In this document: positions 5,974 through 19,478 of the stretch, one piece after another | How the letters are laid out: every line of letters starts with the position of its first letter | Position numbering within the stretch: the first letter of the stretch is position 1 | From: Armatimonadota bacterium | GTDB taxonomy: Bacteria > Armatimonadota > Armatimonadia > Armatimonadales > Armatimonadaceae | Direction: 5' to 3' | Assembly: GCA_043754515.1 (NCBI GenBank) | Contig: JAYUUO010000286.1 | Coordinates: forward strand, 1-22,720 | DNA: 22,720 bases | The notes under the pieces: generated by a model | What the model saw: the letters and a program-made list of their open reading frames with translations, nothing else | What the model was told of the DNA's origin: nothing | Database searches by the model: none | Translations under genes and position numbers: made by a program

Positions 5974-6504
5974 TCACAGTGCCTTTGAGAGCACGTCACG
6001 CGACTTCGCGTCTAGTGAATCGGTGTCTCGCACCTCGAAGCGGTTGCCTTCGGGGTCGGTGATTAGCACCCGGTTCTGGCCCAGGTTTTGCACCGAATCC
6101 TTGATGTTGCGTAGCGAGTAGGTGCGTGTCCCCCGATCGGTCACCATCTCCCAGTCAATGACGCCGTACTGCTCCTTCACACGCACGGTCCGCTCCCAGA
6201 CGGGCAGGAAATAACGCCGCTCCAATTCCTCGGTGATGATGCGGCGTGAATCCGCGTCAATTCCGTCTAGCGACACCAGAGTACCGATGTCTTTGTCGGA
6301 CGCGTCGCGCAGTCCGATGTACTTGTCCGGGTCGGAGAACGGGAAGGCGCGGGCGATGCGCACATCGGCATAGCAACGATCCGGCGTCAGTCGAGGATCG
6401 CCCTCCGCCGTCAGGCGAACCGTCACGCTTCCCGGTGCCGGTCGGGAAAGACGCACGGCAGAGGGTGACAGCAGTATTAGATCAGAGTGTTGTTCGTCGT
6501 TCAT
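5974..6504 (-). CDS. DUF1854-like protein
   Basis: Recognised pattern RAFPFSDPDKYI...EELERRYFLP...W...TDRG...LITDPEGNRF; lies directly downstream of an ABC transporter, the usual context. Start 6504 or 6525. Confidence 0.8.
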   Translation of the reverse strand: MNDEQHSDLILLSPSAVRLSRPAPGSVTVRLTAEGDPRLTPDRCYADVRIARAFPFSDPDKYIGLRDASDKDIGTLVSLDGIDADSRRIITEELERRYFLPVWERTVRVKEQYGVIDWEMVTDRGTRTYSLRNIKDSVQNLGQNRVLITDPEGNRFEVRDTDSLDAKSRDVLSKAL

Positions 6505-6588
6505 GATGTAGTGTCGCTCCCCCAACTAGCGAGCATTGGCGGACGCGAATTTCAACCCACGCCTGGTCTTTCAGTCCTCGTAAATCTT

Positions 6589-8841
6589 TCAGCCTTCGTA
6601 GATTCGCATCTTGTTAACTTCGAGCTGCATCTCGACCAGCCGCCGGAAGATCCCGTTTTCTTTGTCCATCAGTTCGTCGTGCGTGCCCATCTCCGCGACC
6701 TTCCCCTTGTCCATCACTATCAGGCGGTCCGCGTTTCGCAAGGTCGAGAGGCGGTGCGCGATAGCGAACGTCGTGCGCCCGGAGATCAGCCGCTGGATCG
6801 CCTGCTGTATCTCTGCCTCTGTCTCGGTGTCTACGCTCGCCGTCGCCTCGTCCAGAATCAGAATGCGCGGGTCGTGCAGAATGGCGCGGGCGATGGAGAG
6901 ACGTTGACGCTCGCCGCCCGAAAGCCGAACCCCGCGCTCCCCTACCTGCGTGTCGTAGCCGTCAGGAAAACGCATCACGAAGTCATGCGCGTTCGCCGCT
7001 TTCGCCGCCCGCATCACCTGCTCCGGCGTCGCGTCGGGGTTCGCGTAGGCGATATTGTCCGAGATCGTGCCGGGGAACAGGAACGGCTCCTGAAGCACGA
7101 TGCCGAGTTGACGGCGCAGATCATGTAGCTTAACGCCGCGCATGTCTACCCCGTCCAGCAGAATCCGCCCCTCCGTCGGGTCATAAAACCGGGAGATCAG
7201 GTTAATGATCGTGGTCTTCCCCGCGCCGGAGTGCCCGACCAGCCCGATCATCTCGCCCGGCTTGACGTCGAGATCCACGCTGTCGAGAACACGCCGCGCT
7301 TTATCATAGCCGAACGAGACGTTCTCGAAGCGGATCGCGCCCTCAATCCGCGAGAGCGGCACGGCGTCCGCCGCGTCCTTCACGTCCGACTCGGTGTCCA
7401 GTATCTCGAACACACGCTCCGCTGCCGTCACCGCGCGGGAGAGCCAGTCCGCTATGCGGGTCATCTGCTGGAGCGGCCCGTACAATTGCCCCAGGTAGAA
7501 AAGAAACATCTGGAAAGTGCCGAGGGTCATCAGGTTGCCGACCACGGACCGCCCGCCGACAAACCAGACGATGAACGAGCCAGACGACATCAGAAAGCCG
7601 ATCAGCGGGAACACTGTCGCCCAGTTCTGCTCCACGGATAGGTTCACAGTGAACAGTGAGCCGACGCGGCGCCGGAACTGCGACTTTTCCCGGTCTTCCT
7701 GAGCGAACGCCTTGACGACGCGCGTTCCCGCAAGCGTCGAGTTGAGAGTGGCCGTCATAACCGAGCGAAGGTGCCACATCCGCTCCATCTGGCGGCGCAG
7801 GAACCCCCACGTCATCCTCGTTGCCAGCACCACCAGCGGGACCGGTAGCACCACGAGAAGCGTCAGCCACGGGTTCCAAAACAGGAGTACGACCACGATC
7901 CCCACGATAGTCAGGCCGTTCACAACCAGGAACTGTAACCCGTCCACGAGAAAGTTGTTCAGTTCGTTCACATCCTGTGTCACGCGGGCGAGTAGCGCGC
8001 CGGTCTGCCGCTTATCGTAGTAGGACAACCCCAGTTGTTGCAGATGGTCGAAAACCTGCGTGCGGAGCCGGAGCGTGATGCTACCGGACAGGAACGCCGA
8101 GAGCCGCCCCCGGAAGACGGTGAGTACGGCGGCGAACAGTTGCGTACCGACGAGAAGTCCCACCAACAGCGGGAGCGAGGAGAGCCGCTCCGTCGCGGTG
8201 ATGGAAAGGTTTCGCGGGGCGAGCACATCGTCGGTCAGGTGCTTGACGACGATGCCCGGCGCGAGACCGGCGGCTGTCGCGGCGATCATCAGGAGTGCCA
8301 GTACGACCGCCTCCCCTTTCCGCTCGGCGGCGTACCCGAAGAGGCGCGCGAGCGTCTTGCCCTGGTTCAGACAGGCTTTGCAAACATCATTGTCGCCGGG
8401 GAGCGGCCGCCCGCACTTAGGACACATCCGGCGTTCCTCCAGCATGTCGGCACCTTCGGGGAGCGTGTCGCCGGTCGCGAGCGCGTTCAAAGCCCGCGCA
8501 ATCCCCGCCATGTTCCCAGCGAGCGAGGTGCCATACCGAAGCAGTTCGAGCGTGTCCCCGGTGCCCTTGCGCACGGCGAGGAGGCTCCCCCCGCCGACCA
8601 TCGCCTCGTCACGTACGGACGCTAAATCGGCGAAGCGCAAGGTGAGGTCCGGGTCCGCCTCCCCGGCTCCGGTGTAGACGCGGAGCGCGTTCGTGTCCGC
8701 GACGAGCCAGCGCGAACCGAAGTCGCCATTTGCCAATCGGTCTGTCTGTACGGCGACGTGAAGCGGCAAGTCACCGGTGCCGTTGCGGTGTACGGCGAGT
8801 TGGCGCGAAAGATTGACGGGAAGTTCTTCTAAAAGGGGCAT
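6589..8841 (-). CDS. ABC exporter (TMD+NBD) with N-terminal extension and C4 zinc ribbon, DUF1854-associated type
   Basis: CPKC-x9-CKAC precedes the TM region; NBD has GHSGAGKT, LSGGERQR, LILDEAT and IAHRL. Confidence 0.92.
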   Translation of the reverse strand: MPLLEELPVNLSRQLAVHRNGTGDLPLHVAVQTDRLANGDFGSRWLVADTNALRVYTGAGEADPDLTLRFADLASVRDEAMVGGGSLLAVRKGTGDTLELLRYGTSLAGNMAGIARALNALATGDTLPEGADMLEERRMCPKCGRPLPGDNDVCKACLNQGKTLARLFGYAAERKGEAVVLALLMIAATAAGLAPGIVVKHLTDDVLAPRNLSITATERLSSLPLLVGLLVGTQLFAAVLTVFRGRLSAFLSGSITLRLRTQVFDHLQQLGLSYYDKRQTGALLARVTQDVNELNNFLVDGLQFLVVNGLTIVGIVVVLLFWNPWLTLLVVLPVPLVVLATRMTWGFLRRQMERMWHLRSVMTATLNSTLAGTRVVKAFAQEDREKSQFRRRVGSLFTVNLSVEQNWATVFPLIGFLMSSGSFIVWFVGGRSVVGNLMTLGTFQMFLFYLGQLYGPLQQMTRIADWLSRAVTAAERVFEILDTESDVKDAADAVPLSRIEGAIRFENVSFGYDKARRVLDSVDLDVKPGEMIGLVGHSGAGKTTIINLISRFYDPTEGRILLDGVDMRGVKLHDLRRQLGIVLQEPFLFPGTISDNIAYANPDATPEQVMRAAKAANAHDFVMRFPDGYDTQVGERGVRLSGGERQRLSIARAILHDPRILILDEATASVDTETEAEIQQAIQRLISGRTTFAIAHRLSTLRNADRLIVMDKGKVAEMGTHDELMDKENGIFRRLVEMQLEVNKMRIYEG

Positions 8842-8943: not shown

Positions 8944-9393
8944 CTACGTGGTTCCGGCGTCCGCCGCCGCCGTAGCGACGCCATCAGTGCCAGGGTCGCC
9001 CCACGGGGAGGGCAAGGGCGATGAGGCAAAGGAAAAACTGCCGTCATCGGCGAGGTGGATTATGATCGTGCCCTCTATCACCCCGTCTAGCAAGGCGCGG
9101 TTCATCTCGTTTTGGAGTAGGCGATCCGGCTCCGCGCCGCCCTTCGGACGGCGTTGCCGCTCGCCGAGTTCGCGTAACGCCTCCGTCTCGGAGCGAACAT
9201 TCCTCGCCCAGACGAGCACTCCCTGGAGCATGTCCAGCCGGGCACCCTGCTCCCCACGCGACCGCAGTATCGCCGTAATCAAGGAGCGGATCTCGGCGTA
9301 GGAGTCGTACACCGGCGGGGCGGCTTTGCGCCGATGTTCCGGCTTCGCGGGTTCTTCGACAGGTCGTGTCCTCGGGCGTCCTCTACCGGGCAT
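8944..9393 (-). CDS. Hypothetical protein with N-terminal AT-hook-like motif (GRGRPR)
   Basis: Fills the gap after dnaN. AGGTGA (9405-9400) is properly spaced to ATG 9393; TACAAT at 9491-9486. Confidence 0.7.
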   Translation of the reverse strand: MPGRGRPRTRPVEEPAKPEHRRKAAPPVYDSYAEIRSLITAILRSRGEQGARLDMLQGVLVWARNVRSETEALRELGERQRRPKGGAEPDRLLQNEMNRALLDGVIEGTIIIHLADDGSFSFASSPLPSPWGDPGTDGVATAAADAGTT

Positions 9394-9499
9394 AGTCATT
9401 CACCTGCGTTCGGCTCGCGGGCGACTCCGAACGACACCTTTCCCGCGCGCGGGCGTCCTTAACCCCCAAACGATTTTAGGGCCTCATTGTACTTAAAGC

Positions 9500-9526
9500 G
9501 GGCCGGGGCGGTCAACCACCCGGCCC
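9500..9526 (-). terminator. Probable terminator after dnaN
   Basis: GGGCCGGG...CCCGGCCC stem, followed on the minus strand by a short GCTTTAA tail. Confidence 0.5.
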
Positions 9527-9544: not shown

Positions 9545-10705
9545 CTAGATCACCTGCATCGGCATCAAGACACACAGGTAGTCCTGCGCATTGTCCCCGA
9601 TCGGACGGAGGATGCCGGGGCGCAACGGCTCCGTCAGTTCGAGCACGACGCCTTCGGTCTCCACCACGTTCAGCACGTCGTTCATATACTTCGCGTTGAA
9701 CGCGATCTGGATGTCGTCGCCCTCGCGCGCCACCTCGATCTCGTCGCGCACCGAACCGACCGCGCCCGACTCGGCGGACAGCACCAGTTGTGCCCCCTCG
9801 GTTGAGAGTACCACCCGGTTCGCGTTGTCACGCGCGACAATGGCGGCCCGCTTAACGGCTTTGGCGAACTCGCTGGTCTCCAGCGTCAGTTTACGGTCGT
9901 GCCCGGCGGGGATCACGCGCTCGTAGTTAGGGTACTGTCCCTCGATCAGGCGGGTCACCATCGTGATGGTGGCGGACGGGATGCTCGCGTCCGGCTTCCC
10001 ACGCTTGATCTCGAACCGCGCCTGACCCTGCGCGAGCGACACGACCACGGAGCCTTCGTCGTCCGCTAGCCGTAGCAACTCGTTCATCGCCCGAGCTGGG
10101 ACAATAGCGTTCGCCTCGCCGGTGCCACCTTCGAGCTGGATCGTGCGCACCGCGAGCCGGTGCGTGTCGGTCGCGACCGCCCGCAGTTGGGTGCCGTTGA
10201 ATGCAAGCAGGACGCCGGTCAGGATTGGCCGCGATTCGTCGGTAGCGACCGCGAAAAGCACGTGCCGGATTACGTCGCGCAACAATTCGCCCGCGATGGT
10301 GAACGACGCGGACGGGGTGACTTCCGGTACGCCGGGGAACTCTTCGGCGGGCAGACCTAAAATCTTATAGTCGGAGCGGCCCGCGCGAACCTGCATCTGA
10401 TTCCCGCCGCTCGGGCGATCCAGCGTCACGTCCGCTTCTGGTAAGGCGCCGAGTATCTCGGTGAACACGCGCGCCGGTGCCGTGAAGCCCGCCGTGTCCT
10501 CGTCGTCGCCGATCCCGAGGTCGAGCCGCGCCGGGAGATGACATTCCATCCACATCTCAAGATCCGTCGCGGTTAGTTTCAAGCCGTCGCCCTGCGGCGT
10601 CGCGAGGATGTGCGACAGGATAGGCAGTGTCGAGCGGCCGGAAACGGCGCGTCCCACGGTCTGGACGGCTTCATATAGCTCTTTGCGAGGGCATATCACT
10701 TGCAT
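9545..10705 (-). CDS. dnaN: DNA polymerase III beta sliding clamp
   Basis: RSTLPILSHIL, LTATDLE, FAVATDESRPILTGV, VATDTHRLA, TRLIEGQYPNYERVIP, IAFNAKY, C-terminal VLMPM; 386 aa; AAGGA upstream. Confidence 0.97.
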   Translation of the reverse strand: MQVICPRKELYEAVQTVGRAVSGRSTLPILSHILATPQGDGLKLTATDLEMWMECHLPARLDLGIGDDEDTAGFTAPARVFTEILGALPEADVTLDRPSGGNQMQVRAGRSDYKILGLPAEEFPGVPEVTPSASFTIAGELLRDVIRHVLFAVATDESRPILTGVLLAFNGTQLRAVATDTHRLAVRTIQLEGGTGEANAIVPARAMNELLRLADDEGSVVVSLAQGQARFEIKRGKPDASIPSATITMVTRLIEGQYPNYERVIPAGHDRKLTLETSEFAKAVKRAAIVARDNANRVVLSTEGAQLVLSAESGAVGSVRDEIEVAREGDDIQIAFNAKYMNDVLNVVETEGVVLELTEPLRPGILRPIGDNAQDYLCVLMPMQVI

Positions 10706-10732
10706 ACGTTTATAGTTCCTTAGGTTGTCACG

Positions 10733-11044
10733 TTAGATGGAAATCGGGAGGCTGTATTGGCCCGCGCCGACCGGTGCCGGATCCGTGTCCGGCGCGACAT
10801 GTGGGTTATCCGAGTAAAGGGCGCGTAGGGCGCGGGCACGAAACGCGTCGGAGACTATCACATCCCCGGCATCGCTTCGTAGCCGCTCCCCGGTGATTCG
10901 CAGACCGATGACCTCGCGCGAACAGTCCGCGCATCCGAGCAGATGGACGCCGACCCGGTGGCGCGTCTCCGCAGAAAGCTCATCATCGTTGTACGCCCCG
11001 ATCAGTTCGGCGACATGTTCACACGCTAGTCTGTTATTTCCCAT
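10733..11044 (-). CDS. Small soluble zinc-binding anti-sigma factor (zf-HC2/ZAS), ~103 aa
   Basis: CEHVAELIGAYNDDELS...VHLLGCADC (HxxxCxxC). ATG 11044 overlaps the sigma 3' end. No TM segment. Confidence 0.88.
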   Translation of the reverse strand: MGNNRLACEHVAELIGAYNDDELSAETRHRVGVHLLGCADCSREVIGLRITGERLRSDAGDVIVSDAFRARALRALYSDNPHVAPDTDPAPVGAGQYSLPISI

Positions 11045-11598
11045 ATGTCTTTCAAGGCGTCGCGCAGGGCGCGGCGGGCGCGGTACAACAGCGATTTCGT
11101 GGCGGCGACGGAGCGGTTCAAGACCAGCGCGGCGTCCGCGTGCGGCACGTATTCCAGGTCGCACAGGGTCAAAACGGCGCGGTACTCTTCGGGTAGCGCG
11201 TCGAGAGCGCGCAGGAGCGTGACCTTTTCGGCACGGTGTTCGGCGTCAGCGGCCAGATCATACCGATCCGCGACGTTCAGCGCGTCGGTCGCATCTAGTG
11301 ACAGCGTCGGGAGCCGCAGTTGCCGCCGCTTGTCCGCGCACAGGCTACGCACCACGGTGAAAAGCCAGGACCCGAACCCCGCCGCCGTTTCGCCCCGGAA
11401 ACTTCGCGCAAGTCGGAACGCTTTAAGGAAAGCTTCCTGCGTAACCTCCTCGGCATCCTCTCGCGTTTCCGTCAAACGTACCGCGAGCCCGAGGGCGCGA
11501 TCCGCGTAAAGATCGAACAGTGTCTCCATTGCCCGGCCGTCACCCGCTTTAAAGCGGACAACAAGCCGCGTCTCCCACGCCGTGTTTCCGTCAGGCAT
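11026..11598 (-). CDS. ECF RNA polymerase sigma factor
   Basis: Region 2 DAEEVTQEAFLKAF...FGSWLFTVVRSLCADKRR; region 4 ALDALPEEYRAVLTL...ATKSLLYRARRALR. Confidence 0.95.
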   Translation of the reverse strand: MPDGNTAWETRLVVRFKAGDGRAMETLFDLYADRALGLAVRLTETREDAEEVTQEAFLKAFRLARSFRGETAAGFGSWLFTVVRSLCADKRRQLRLPTLSLDATDALNVADRYDLAADAEHRAEKVTLLRALDALPEEYRAVLTLCDLEYVPHADAALVLNRSVAATKSLLYRARRALRDALKDIWEITD

Positions 11599-11682
11599 TC
11601 ATCAGCCAATTTTCTCGTACGAAGGTAGACGTATCGCCGCGCCAAAAAGCGTCGTGGCGATCGGATATTATTTCGGGCGGCG

Positions 11683-11716
11683 AAAGAAAAGCGGGGAGGC
11701 ACCGTGCCCTCCCCGC
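11683..11716 (-). terminator. Intrinsic terminator after the transglutaminase-like gene
   Basis: GCGGGGAGG...CCTCCCCGC stem followed on the minus strand by TTTTCTTT. Confidence 0.75.
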
Positions 11717-11736
11717 CCCCTGGTAGTGGCGAGTCA

Positions 11737-18038: not shown

Positions 18039-19331
18039 CTACTTCCCGGCGGGCGCGAACTCGATCAGATGGCGCGGGCACACCTGCGCGGTGTTGTACA
18101 CGATCAGTTCGTCGTTCTGAACCCCGGACTCATTCCGCTTCGCCCACGTCGAGTCGTAGCCCGCTTTCGGCAGATGCTCCCCGTGCTTAGGCACGTAATA
18201 TTTGCCCATCGCGACATCGGCCAGGAACATGAAGCAGTTCTCGTCGCGCGCCCCGCTCCCCCAGTACCCATAGGCGTAATTGAGCGATTTCGTGGAAGCG
18301 TTCGCGAAGTACACGCCGTTCCCGAAGAGGCGTCCCGTGCAATGCGGGGCGTTGCCCGGCGGGATCACGAACCCGGACTTCAGGATCGAGAGCAGATTGC
18401 CCGCCCGTGTCCCGTGCCACAGTTCCTGGACGTTGCCACGCCGCGCGCCGTCCGCGTCGAACGCCTTCGCCATCGCGGCCAGCCCGACCTTGAACACGCG
18501 CTTGACATCGAGATGCTGACATACATGTGTGCTCTGCCGGGTCTCGTGGTATTTGCGGCGGATGCGCTCGATCTCGAACACGTCTTCGACCAGCGTCAGT
18601 TTCGCCTCGAACAGCTTCGGCACCACGGCCTTGCGACTCTCCTCGGCGTTCTCCGGCGCGTTCAGCACCATGTCGAGGCTCGCCTGGAGCGAATCCAAAA
18701 TCCCGTTCTGTTTGCGCACCGCTTCGAGATCGGGAAACAGAACTTGCGGGTCGGGCTTGGCGCGCCCGATGTTCTGCGGCACCAGCATCAGGTAATCGTT
18801 GAGCGAGGCGGAGAGTGCCTTCGCGCCGAAATCGCCCCCACTCACCAGGTTTCCGATTACCGATAGCAGGTCGCGTGCCTCCGCCAGGGCATCCCCGGTC
18901 ACGATGCCGAGCGGCGTGCTGAACGTCCCCCTCGATTCGTCGTAGGACAGCGTCGTGGACTCCAGAATACGGTGGACATTCACGCGGGCGAGGTGCCGAA
19001 CCAGTGCCATAGTCTCCGGTGAGTCGCACGTGATCTGGTCGGTCGCGATCCCGGCGAGGCGTGAGCCTTCGGCGGCTTTCGCGCTCGTCGCGGTGTTCGC
19101 GAGGGTTTTCTGGAGGCGGTAACCCTTATTCTCCTTCTCACGACACTTGGCGTCGAACTGGGATTCAGTGTACGAGGCCGCCGTCTTGCGTTGGCCGTCC
19201 TCACCGACGCGCCCCCAATGGGTCTCGCACGAATCGTCGGAGAACAGCGTGATGTTCCAGAACTTGTTGTTGTTGTTCTCGATGTTCGTCAGCACGTAGC
19301 GCGCTTCTTTGGTGGTTGTCGTGGTTGTCAT
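18039..19331 (-). CDS. Bacterial poly(ADP-ribose) polymerase: WGR + helical regulatory + catalytic ART domain
   Basis: NNNKFW...HWGRVG (WGR); TPLG...YLMLVPQ (PARP regulatory-like); LWHGT, GRLFGNGVYFA...KSLNY, FLADVAMG, NDELIVY (H-Y-E triad). GAGGA RBS before ATG 19331. Confidence 0.92.
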   Translation of the reverse strand: MTTTTTTKEARYVLTNIENNNNKFWNITLFSDDSCETHWGRVGEDGQRKTAASYTESQFDAKCREKENKGYRLQKTLANTATSAKAAEGSRLAGIATDQITCDSPETMALVRHLARVNVHRILESTTLSYDESRGTFSTPLGIVTGDALAEARDLLSVIGNLVSGGDFGAKALSASLNDYLMLVPQNIGRAKPDPQVLFPDLEAVRKQNGILDSLQASLDMVLNAPENAEESRKAVVPKLFEAKLTLVEDVFEIERIRRKYHETRQSTHVCQHLDVKRVFKVGLAAMAKAFDADGARRGNVQELWHGTRAGNLLSILKSGFVIPPGNAPHCTGRLFGNGVYFANASTKSLNYAYGYWGSGARDENCFMFLADVAMGKYYVPKHGEHLPKAGYDSTWAKRNESGVQNDELIVYNTAQVCPRHLIEFAPAGK

Positions 19332-19478
19332 GTCGCCGATCCTCGTCACTCTGTGTGGTTTCTCGCGGTGTATATCGCTTACACACCGACACTGCGGGCG
19401 CGGGCGGCGATACGGAAATCGGCGCGGCCGTAAAGAATGGCACCGCCCCGCCTCCGACGGAGCGGGTACAATGTGCGC

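Follow-up and report, generated by a model that had tools for sequence, protein, structure and literature searches.

The stretch of DNA analysed here (the window; 22,720 nt) is contig C286 of genome G000, an Armatimonadota bacterium. It carries, on the reverse strand, three consecutive genes for an ECF sigma factor, a soluble anti-sigma factor and the beta sliding clamp DnaN, preceded by a predicted promoter and bounded by two hairpins (Table 1). The sigma and anti-sigma genes overlap by 19 nt, and 27 nt separate the anti-sigma stop codon from the ATG of dnaN. No terminator was called at the second junction, which folds weakly (-12.1 kcal/mol over 81 nt). The layout described in the earlier note, with overlapping regulator genes and dnaN starting 27 bp further on with no hairpin in between, was confirmed. 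The gap between anti-sigma gene and dnaN varies from -1 to 898 nt among the loci of the family, and extra sequence is inserted at this point in L002, L005, L006, L007 and L010.

Table 1. Features of the sigma, anti-sigma and dnaN locus in the window.
Feature	Position	Strand	Basis or description
Terminator-like hairpin and T-run	11683..11720	-	13-bp stem, 8-nt loop, then CTTT; RNAfold of 11740-11660
Predicted ECF promoter	11625..11656	-	Upstream conservation and PWM; function inferred
ECF sigma factor gene	11026..11598	-	Sigma70_r2 (PF04542), Sigma70_r4_2 (PF08281); TIGR02937
Soluble ZAS/ASD anti-sigma factor gene	10733..11044	-	zf-HC2 (PF13490); AlphaFold2 model; alignment A1
QYSLPI, clamp-motif-like hexamer peptide	10742..10759	-	Sequence; conservation in A1; classes over 103 genomes
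dnaN, beta sliding clamp	9545..10705	-	TIGR00663 above cut-off; 386 aa
GC-rich hairpin directly 3′ of dnaN	9497..9526	-	RNAfold; no call from terminator scan

The upstream hairpin lies between the operon and a transglutaminase-like gene (Transglut_core by Pfam). A simple terminator scan did not call it; as a terminator of the transglutaminase-like gene, it would insulate the operon from read-through. The GC-rich hairpin downstream of dnaN is the probable end of the operon. Next comes a gene for a 151-aa protein (8944-9399, reverse strand) with no Pfam or NCBIfam match, which has its own sigma70-like site (9515-9486) and homologues downstream of dnaN in L003, L004, L007, L009 and L016. The ORF at 5974-8841 (reverse strand) encodes an ABC exporter that has a long extension at its N-terminus and a zinc-ribbon-like Cys pair; a DUF1854 protein follows. 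A 436-aa ORF elsewhere in the window (18039-19349, reverse strand) presumably encodes a protein with WGR and PARP-type catalytic domains.

The sigma factor (190 aa) consists of regions sigma2 and sigma4 only, and scores 65.4 against the TIGR02937 cut-off of 42.9. At E ≤ 1e-36 there is one orthologue per genome, found in 70 of the 201 genomes sampled (a few of the 70 being other ECFs), so that the system spans part of the phylum. A tree of the sigma factors, built with a quick version of the tree search, tracks the families (8 changes for 9 groups). The linker between sigma2 and sigma4 (residues 91-98, about 11328-11305) opens with a conserved QxxL, which takes the forms QLRLPT in family f1, QPRLLL in f8 and QHKLLE in f11; judged by its sequence, this stretch may be either an ordinary ECF linker or, as in T4 gp55, a further clamp motif.

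Within the family, dnaN was recovered from 28 of 32 genomes, and loci were considered usable if they held the main dnaN with at least 200 nt of upstream DNA. Sigma, anti-sigma and dnaN are syntenic in all 23 usable loci. Outside the 23 are L024 (61 nt upstream) and L025-L029 (5′ end missing), while L030 is a distant second dnaN with neither the sigma pair nor the promoter. Profile searches and fetched regions provided 103 anti-sigma orthologues, one per genome, from 9 families. Excluded from this set were L139, which has a different upstream motif and no tail and was judged non-orthologous; L204, L205, L207, L214, L217 and L219, where the sigma is a different ECF and the anti-sigma is long; L200 and L212, where there is a sigma only; repeat fetches of a genome already in the set; and, inadvertently, L089 and L090 (both QYQLPI). 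The small representatives P0018, P0023, P0030, P0031 and P0125 are L139-like and tail-less, and would count against the claim of a conserved tail if they were orthologous. In f8 and f27, dnaN is usually unlinked from the sigma/anti-sigma pair.

The anti-sigma factor (103 aa) has a zf-HC2 domain at residues 8-41, with an HxxxCxxC signature (score 35.4, cut-off 22.2), and its C-terminus reads ...DNPHVAPDTDPAPVGAGQYSLPISI*. AlphaFold2 predicts four helices (residues 8-19, 25-37, 39-61 and 66-79; mean pLDDT 75.8) and no regular structure beyond about residue 83. The top rows of a Foldseek search were the anti-sigmas RslA, RskA, DdvA and ChrR, none at E ≤ 0.001, and a sequence search for a solved relative found none. 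ESM Atlas returned only generic zf-HC2 clusters, the first of which is commonest in Armatimonadota, and the RsrA/RseA equivalogs of NCBIfam all scored under their cut-offs (TIGR03988, 22.2 against 62.5; NF041468, 19.2 against 165; NF052368, 29.9 against 50). Domain hit, four-helix model and sequence agree with the architecture first proposed, i.e., a ZAS domain, a helix, a linker and a terminal QYSLPISI. By analogy with such proteins, it would bind and inhibit its cognate sigma factor. HxxxCxxC is missing from 39 of the 103 orthologues, in one case through truncation, and 24 of the 103 lack it and retain Q..LPφ (f11, f34 and part of f1), indicating that the zinc site is under less constraint than the tail. 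The window ZAS retains the Cys/His ligands, making a redox or zinc input possible in the source genome.

The published consensus of the hexameric clamp motif is Qφx[L/M]x[F/L], where φ is aliphatic, and its Gln boosts clamp affinity yet is dispensable (PMC11139829). QYSLPI matches this at positions 1 and 4, and differs at positions 2 (Tyr) and 6 (Ile). Published hexamers are of the form QφxLxL, such as QLSLPL of Hda and QLVLGL of Pol IV, and bind the B. subtilis clamp with an affinity 10-20-fold weaker than the E. coli clamp (10.64898/2026.05.27.728225). Position 2 can be aromatic in a functional motif, as in Caulobacter HdaA, which requires QFKLPL (PMC3836487). Among 21,078 stop-to-stop ORFs of at least 100 aa in G000, only two, the anti-sigma included, carry Q[YFWLIM]xLP[FILMV] within their last 15 residues. 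Other ORFs of this genome with clamp-motif-like ends (QLALF, QLSLF, QMTLF, QLGLF, QIGLPF) are C35:15667-16614, C71:2756-3703, C81:7116-9992, C261:3218-4984 and C113:13898-16477.

In an alignment of 23 family sequences (A1), which were picked by dnaN and so are not biased towards the tail, L99 and P100 of the motif are present in 23/23 and Q in 19/23; position 6 is I, L, F or M in all 23, while the linker differs in length and sequence. Across the nine families, 86 of the 103 anti-sigmas have, beyond a divergent linker, a terminal peptide that resembles a clamp motif, a fraction that is inflated because many loci outside f1 were chosen by full-length matches to a tail-containing profile. The tail classes, drawn up after inspection of the data, are QφxLxφ (63), QxxLxφ (6), pentamer-like (3; QLAF, QMTF and QLGLW), Q-less φxLPφ (14) and none (17). 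Shuffled tails gave 1.6% in the strict class and 7.6% in any class, and the ORF tails of G000, used as background, 14/3745 and 83/3745. In the 84 tail-bearing rows, the tail L reaches 98%, P 90% and Q 85%, whereas in linker columns the commonest residue does not exceed 38%. Between the motif and the C-terminus there are 0-20 residues, often forming an acidic end such as LEES or PED. Its forms among the orthologues include QFRLPF, QWSLPF and QLELPF, pentamers in f2, and, in f7, QLVLGI, which resembles QLVLGL of E. coli Pol IV. Gln at position 1 is absent from all 10 anti-sigmas of f15 and from 4 in f1, and position 6 is frequently Ile or Met, outside the published consensus.

Thirteen of the 17 tail-less anti-sigmas form one f2 clade (support 97); the remaining four are near misses (QLPLPN, QRVLPG, QLVLAS, QYRLFR). 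In the 13 genomes of the clade, sigma, anti-sigma and dnaN are still adjacent and the DnaN cleft is intact, so that no altered cleft was seen there as a reason for the loss of the tail. Both the zinc ligands and the -10 element CGTC are missing as well. This clade shows that dnaN linkage can persist without the tail. The expectation that motif and dnaN synteny would be kept while the linker diverged holds for the 23 family loci; the motif recurs after a divergent linker across nine families, and is lost in the 13-genome clade.

The dnaN gene of the window is the sole copy found in G000 (92.7% complete), and is not next to dnaA, which is on another contig. The motifs DTHRL, PNYERVIP and LMPM are intact in the window DnaN; by E. 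coli numbering, we take these to be the motifs of the peptide cleft. DnaA (G000:C303:10807-12870, forward strand) is unusually long (688 aa), has low-complexity insertions and ends in ...EQGLFGDK, and the next long ORF after dnaA is on the opposite strand and is not dnaN. Second copies of dnaN, divergent or partial, are present at G001:C6:92459-93661, G020:C156:9610-10779 and G226:C1:4721133-4721894.

A complex model of DnaN with anti-sigma residues 58-103 scored 0.48 (runs of 0.48, 0.61 and 0.44; best control 0.00; no interface given), passing a mark that 116 of 157 solved pairs and 2 of 215 mismatched ones also reach, where passes at 0.60 or below comprise only 18 of the 157 and both of the mismatches. 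The runs had at least 51% of contacts in common, with a partner pLDDT of at least 45, and the pass may reflect likeness to solved clamp-peptide complexes. The proposal that the anti-sigma binds DnaN gains from the conservation of the motif, and draws weakly on the modelling (0.48 against 0.00 for DnaN plus tail). From motif and model together, QYSLPI probably docks in the peptide cleft of DnaN.

The predicted promoter of the operon has a -35 element CGACGC (11654-11649), a T-rich spacer of 17 nt and a -10 element CGTC (11631-11628), with the sigma ATG 26 nt further on. The pattern CGACRC-N17-CGTC recurs upstream of sigma orthologues (29 of 65 upstream regions fit the seed pattern). In f15, f11 and the tail-less f2 clade, the ECF promoter takes forms that vary by family. 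A PWM was trained on sigma-upstream DNA only, and the window site was scored with a PWM from 28 other loci. The window site ranks first in G000, with 30.2 bits against 20.6 for the next site, and 17 sites reach 16 bits or more genome-wide.

Of 22 genomes in which dnaN is unlinked from the pair, 17 have a site of at least 16 bits no more than 300 nt from this gene (at most 4.8 on the opposite strand), the other 5 falling below 16 bits, and two linked-but-interrupted dnaN loci also have their own copy of the promoter. Among 30 genomes chosen mainly from families without the sigma factor, none of which has the pair ahead of dnaN, the best score at dnaN was at most 12.2, and dnaA is upstream in 10 of the 30; as the PWM misses the variants of f11 and the tail-less f2 clade (scores 1-4), such low control scores do not prove that the promoter is missing. 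In f1 g2 and f2 g13, two separate lineages where the sigma gene has been split off, the promoter is found on anti-sigma and dnaN, with none before the sigma gene in G002 and G081. No internal ECF promoter was found before dnaN in f1 operons (best score at most 5.4 within 300 nt). A few low-scoring genomes aside, the recurring arrangement suggests that one promoter type serves both the inhibitor and the clamp gene. The sigma factor very probably recognises CGACRC-N17-CGTC and transcribes dnaN. Since the ECF-type promoter stays with dnaN where the genes are no longer syntenic, the case for sigma control of dnaN is now stronger than when it was put forward in the earlier note.

In G052, the strict pattern matches exactly two places, the sigma gene and dnaN. 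No third target is shared across 10 genomes, extra pattern matches being mostly within ORFs, and inspection of the other PWM sites of G000 (at most 20.6 bits) revealed no replication theme. A wider regulon was rejected, as the remaining sites are low-scoring, mostly intragenic and unshared; a second site that recurs among the tail-less genomes, located inside coding sequence, was attributed to chance. The predicted regulon is essentially dnaN and its regulators. A sigma70-like promoter, with TTGAC...TACAAT or else an extended -10, closely precedes the ECF promoter at f15 loci L092-L096, L099, L100 and L233-L235, as well as at several loci of f11, and could provide basal dnaN expression. No sigma70-like site was called upstream of the window operon. 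A check for RNA evidence in three sequencing runs recovered small shares of the window, in every case as contigs; X1 and X2 are probably DNA, and none of the pieces extends across the operon.

The best model for this locus is a clamp-sensing negative-feedback loop on dnaN; to clamp sensing, in which clamp binding would set sigma activity, we assign a probability of about 0.6, the sign being uncertain. In such a loop, the sigma factor acting at CGACRC-N17-CGTC would transcribe dnaN and the anti-sigma gene, and usually its own gene too. The four-helix ASD of the anti-sigma would hold the sigma factor, as in established ECF biology, and the flexible QYSLPI tail would enter the DnaN cleft in the manner of Hda QLSLPL or Caulobacter HdaA QFKLPL. 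Clamps with empty clefts, when plentiful, would bind and stabilise the anti-sigma or the sigma:anti-sigma complex and keep the promoter low. When clefts become scarce, with loaded clamps taken by polymerases or repair proteins, or the clamp lost or poisoned, the unbound anti-sigma would release the sigma factor or be degraded, and dnaN and the anti-sigma would be made until balance is restored. The sign of this last step, by which free clamp keeps the sigma factor off, is put forward tentatively; it is preferred over loaded clamp turning it on because the inhibitor and the sensed product are co-induced and the output is a single gene. With somewhat better than even odds, several Armatimonadota families would have dnaN outside the dnaA operon and under a dedicated ECF sigma factor whose anti-sigma gauges free clefts, forming a cellular sliding-clamp homeostat, in which the sigma factor may be essential and may naturally sense replication stress as well as antibiotics or phage proteins that target the clamp.

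An opposite trigger would agree just as well with all of the comparative data on clamp binding and promoter tracking. In this reading, DNA-loaded clamps would draw the anti-sigma away or target it for proteolysis, turning the sigma factor on with active replication or stalled forks, and more clamp would be produced as demand rises. The hexamer is of the Hda type and Hda works with the DNA-loaded clamp (PMC3836487), and the PIP degrons of PCNA provide a precedent. However, free clamp would bind as well unless discriminated, giving positive feedback, and no DNA-binding or AAA+ part is present; this reading is considered unlikely.

There is a still smaller chance that the sigma factor controls dnaN while the tail is recognised by the sigma factor itself, a protease or an adaptor, its likeness to clamp motifs being superficial. 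Short hydrophobic tails often act as degrons, support from the complex model is weak, and the Q is dispensable in f15, as is the entire tail in one f2 clade. Yet the position of the motif, up to 20 residues from the C-terminus and often before an acidic end, is unlike that of an end-anchored degron, the clamp cleft is the only known common receptor for a motif that switches between hexamer and pentamer, and the clamp gene is the sole predicted target. In a p21-like alternative, which seems improbable, some other stress would free the anti-sigma, its tail would plug the clamp cleft, replication would pause and the sigma factor would make clamp for restart, the clamp being the output. The two-ended architecture of the anti-sigma, the HxxxCxxC retained in the window and the lethality, via its clamp motifs, of MuC overexpression (PMC12867686) are consistent with such a brake, but 24 tail-bearing orthologues are without zinc ligands, there is no other sensor domain, and a dnaN-only regulon would be odd for a general stress response. 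An ordinary redox- or zinc-responsive ZAS pair, placed beside dnaN by chance and with a coincidental tail, is very improbable and largely refuted, for although zf-HC2 is present and soluble ZAS proteins are common (ECF14, ECF270, ECF271; PMC7826278), the synteny extends over several families, the promoter stays with unlinked dnaN, Cys residues are lost where the tail is kept, and the background rates of the tail are 0.4-2%.

The conserved ECF circuit devoted to dnaN is real and apparently undescribed, and its putative clamp-binding tail is well supported. No ECF or anti-sigma factor tied to dnaN or the clamp was found in the open-licence literature, in agreement with the earlier note, which knew of no described ECF system of this kind; in the open-licence papers found, clamp-coupled transcription is confined to phages (T4, Mu). 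The words 'dnaN' and 'clamp' are absent from the main text and part of the supplement of the ECF reclassification (PMC7826278), and dnaN is distant from dnaA in the Fimbriimonas genome, its neighbours receiving no comment in the available part of that report (PMC4072686). If the negative-feedback loop on dnaN is true, a cellular anti-sigma that reads the clamp would bring a new kind of input to ECF signalling and add a new level to the control of replication. The matching of clamp supply to demand in bacteria could then be put to a direct test that needs three small soluble proteins and a single promoter, and the same parts would offer a portable reporter of clamp occupancy or of inhibitors of the clamp.

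As a switch, the system is an ECF/ZAS pair; as a form of replication control, it has no counterpart found in the open-licence literature. It resembles the SigR-RsrA type of ECF with a soluble ZAS (ECF14, ECF270, ECF271; PMC7826278) in its sigma2 and sigma4 regions, the overlapping zf-HC2 gene at +1, the four helices and the conserved upstream promoter of autoregulatory type. It differs in having no sensor or membrane domain, dispensable zinc ligands, a clamp-like tail and a predicted dnaN regulon. The main subgroups of ECF14 have an O-methyltransferase gene at -1, whereas a transglutaminase-like gene is at -1 here, and subgroup ECF14s10 includes Armatimonadetes (PMC7826278). In phage T4, C-terminal clamp motifs of gp55 (a sigma factor) and gp33 likewise tie a sigma factor to a sliding clamp, gp45, but the clamp, on DNA, co-activates late genes, and the system as described there includes neither an anti-sigma nor any control acting on the gene for the clamp (PMC9690074). 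Phage Mu has a transcription regulator, MuC/Mor, that binds the bacterial DnaN via clamp motifs; these are pentamers, the protein is an activator working with sigma70 on late promoters, and the account given involves no feedback on cellular dnaN (PMC12867686). Closest in its use of the peptide is Hda/HdaA in RIDA, where Q[LF]xLPL on a flexible terminus reads the state of the clamp, but there the motif is N-terminal, the protein is an AAA+ protein and the output is the hydrolysis of DnaA-ATP rather than transcription (PMC3836487).
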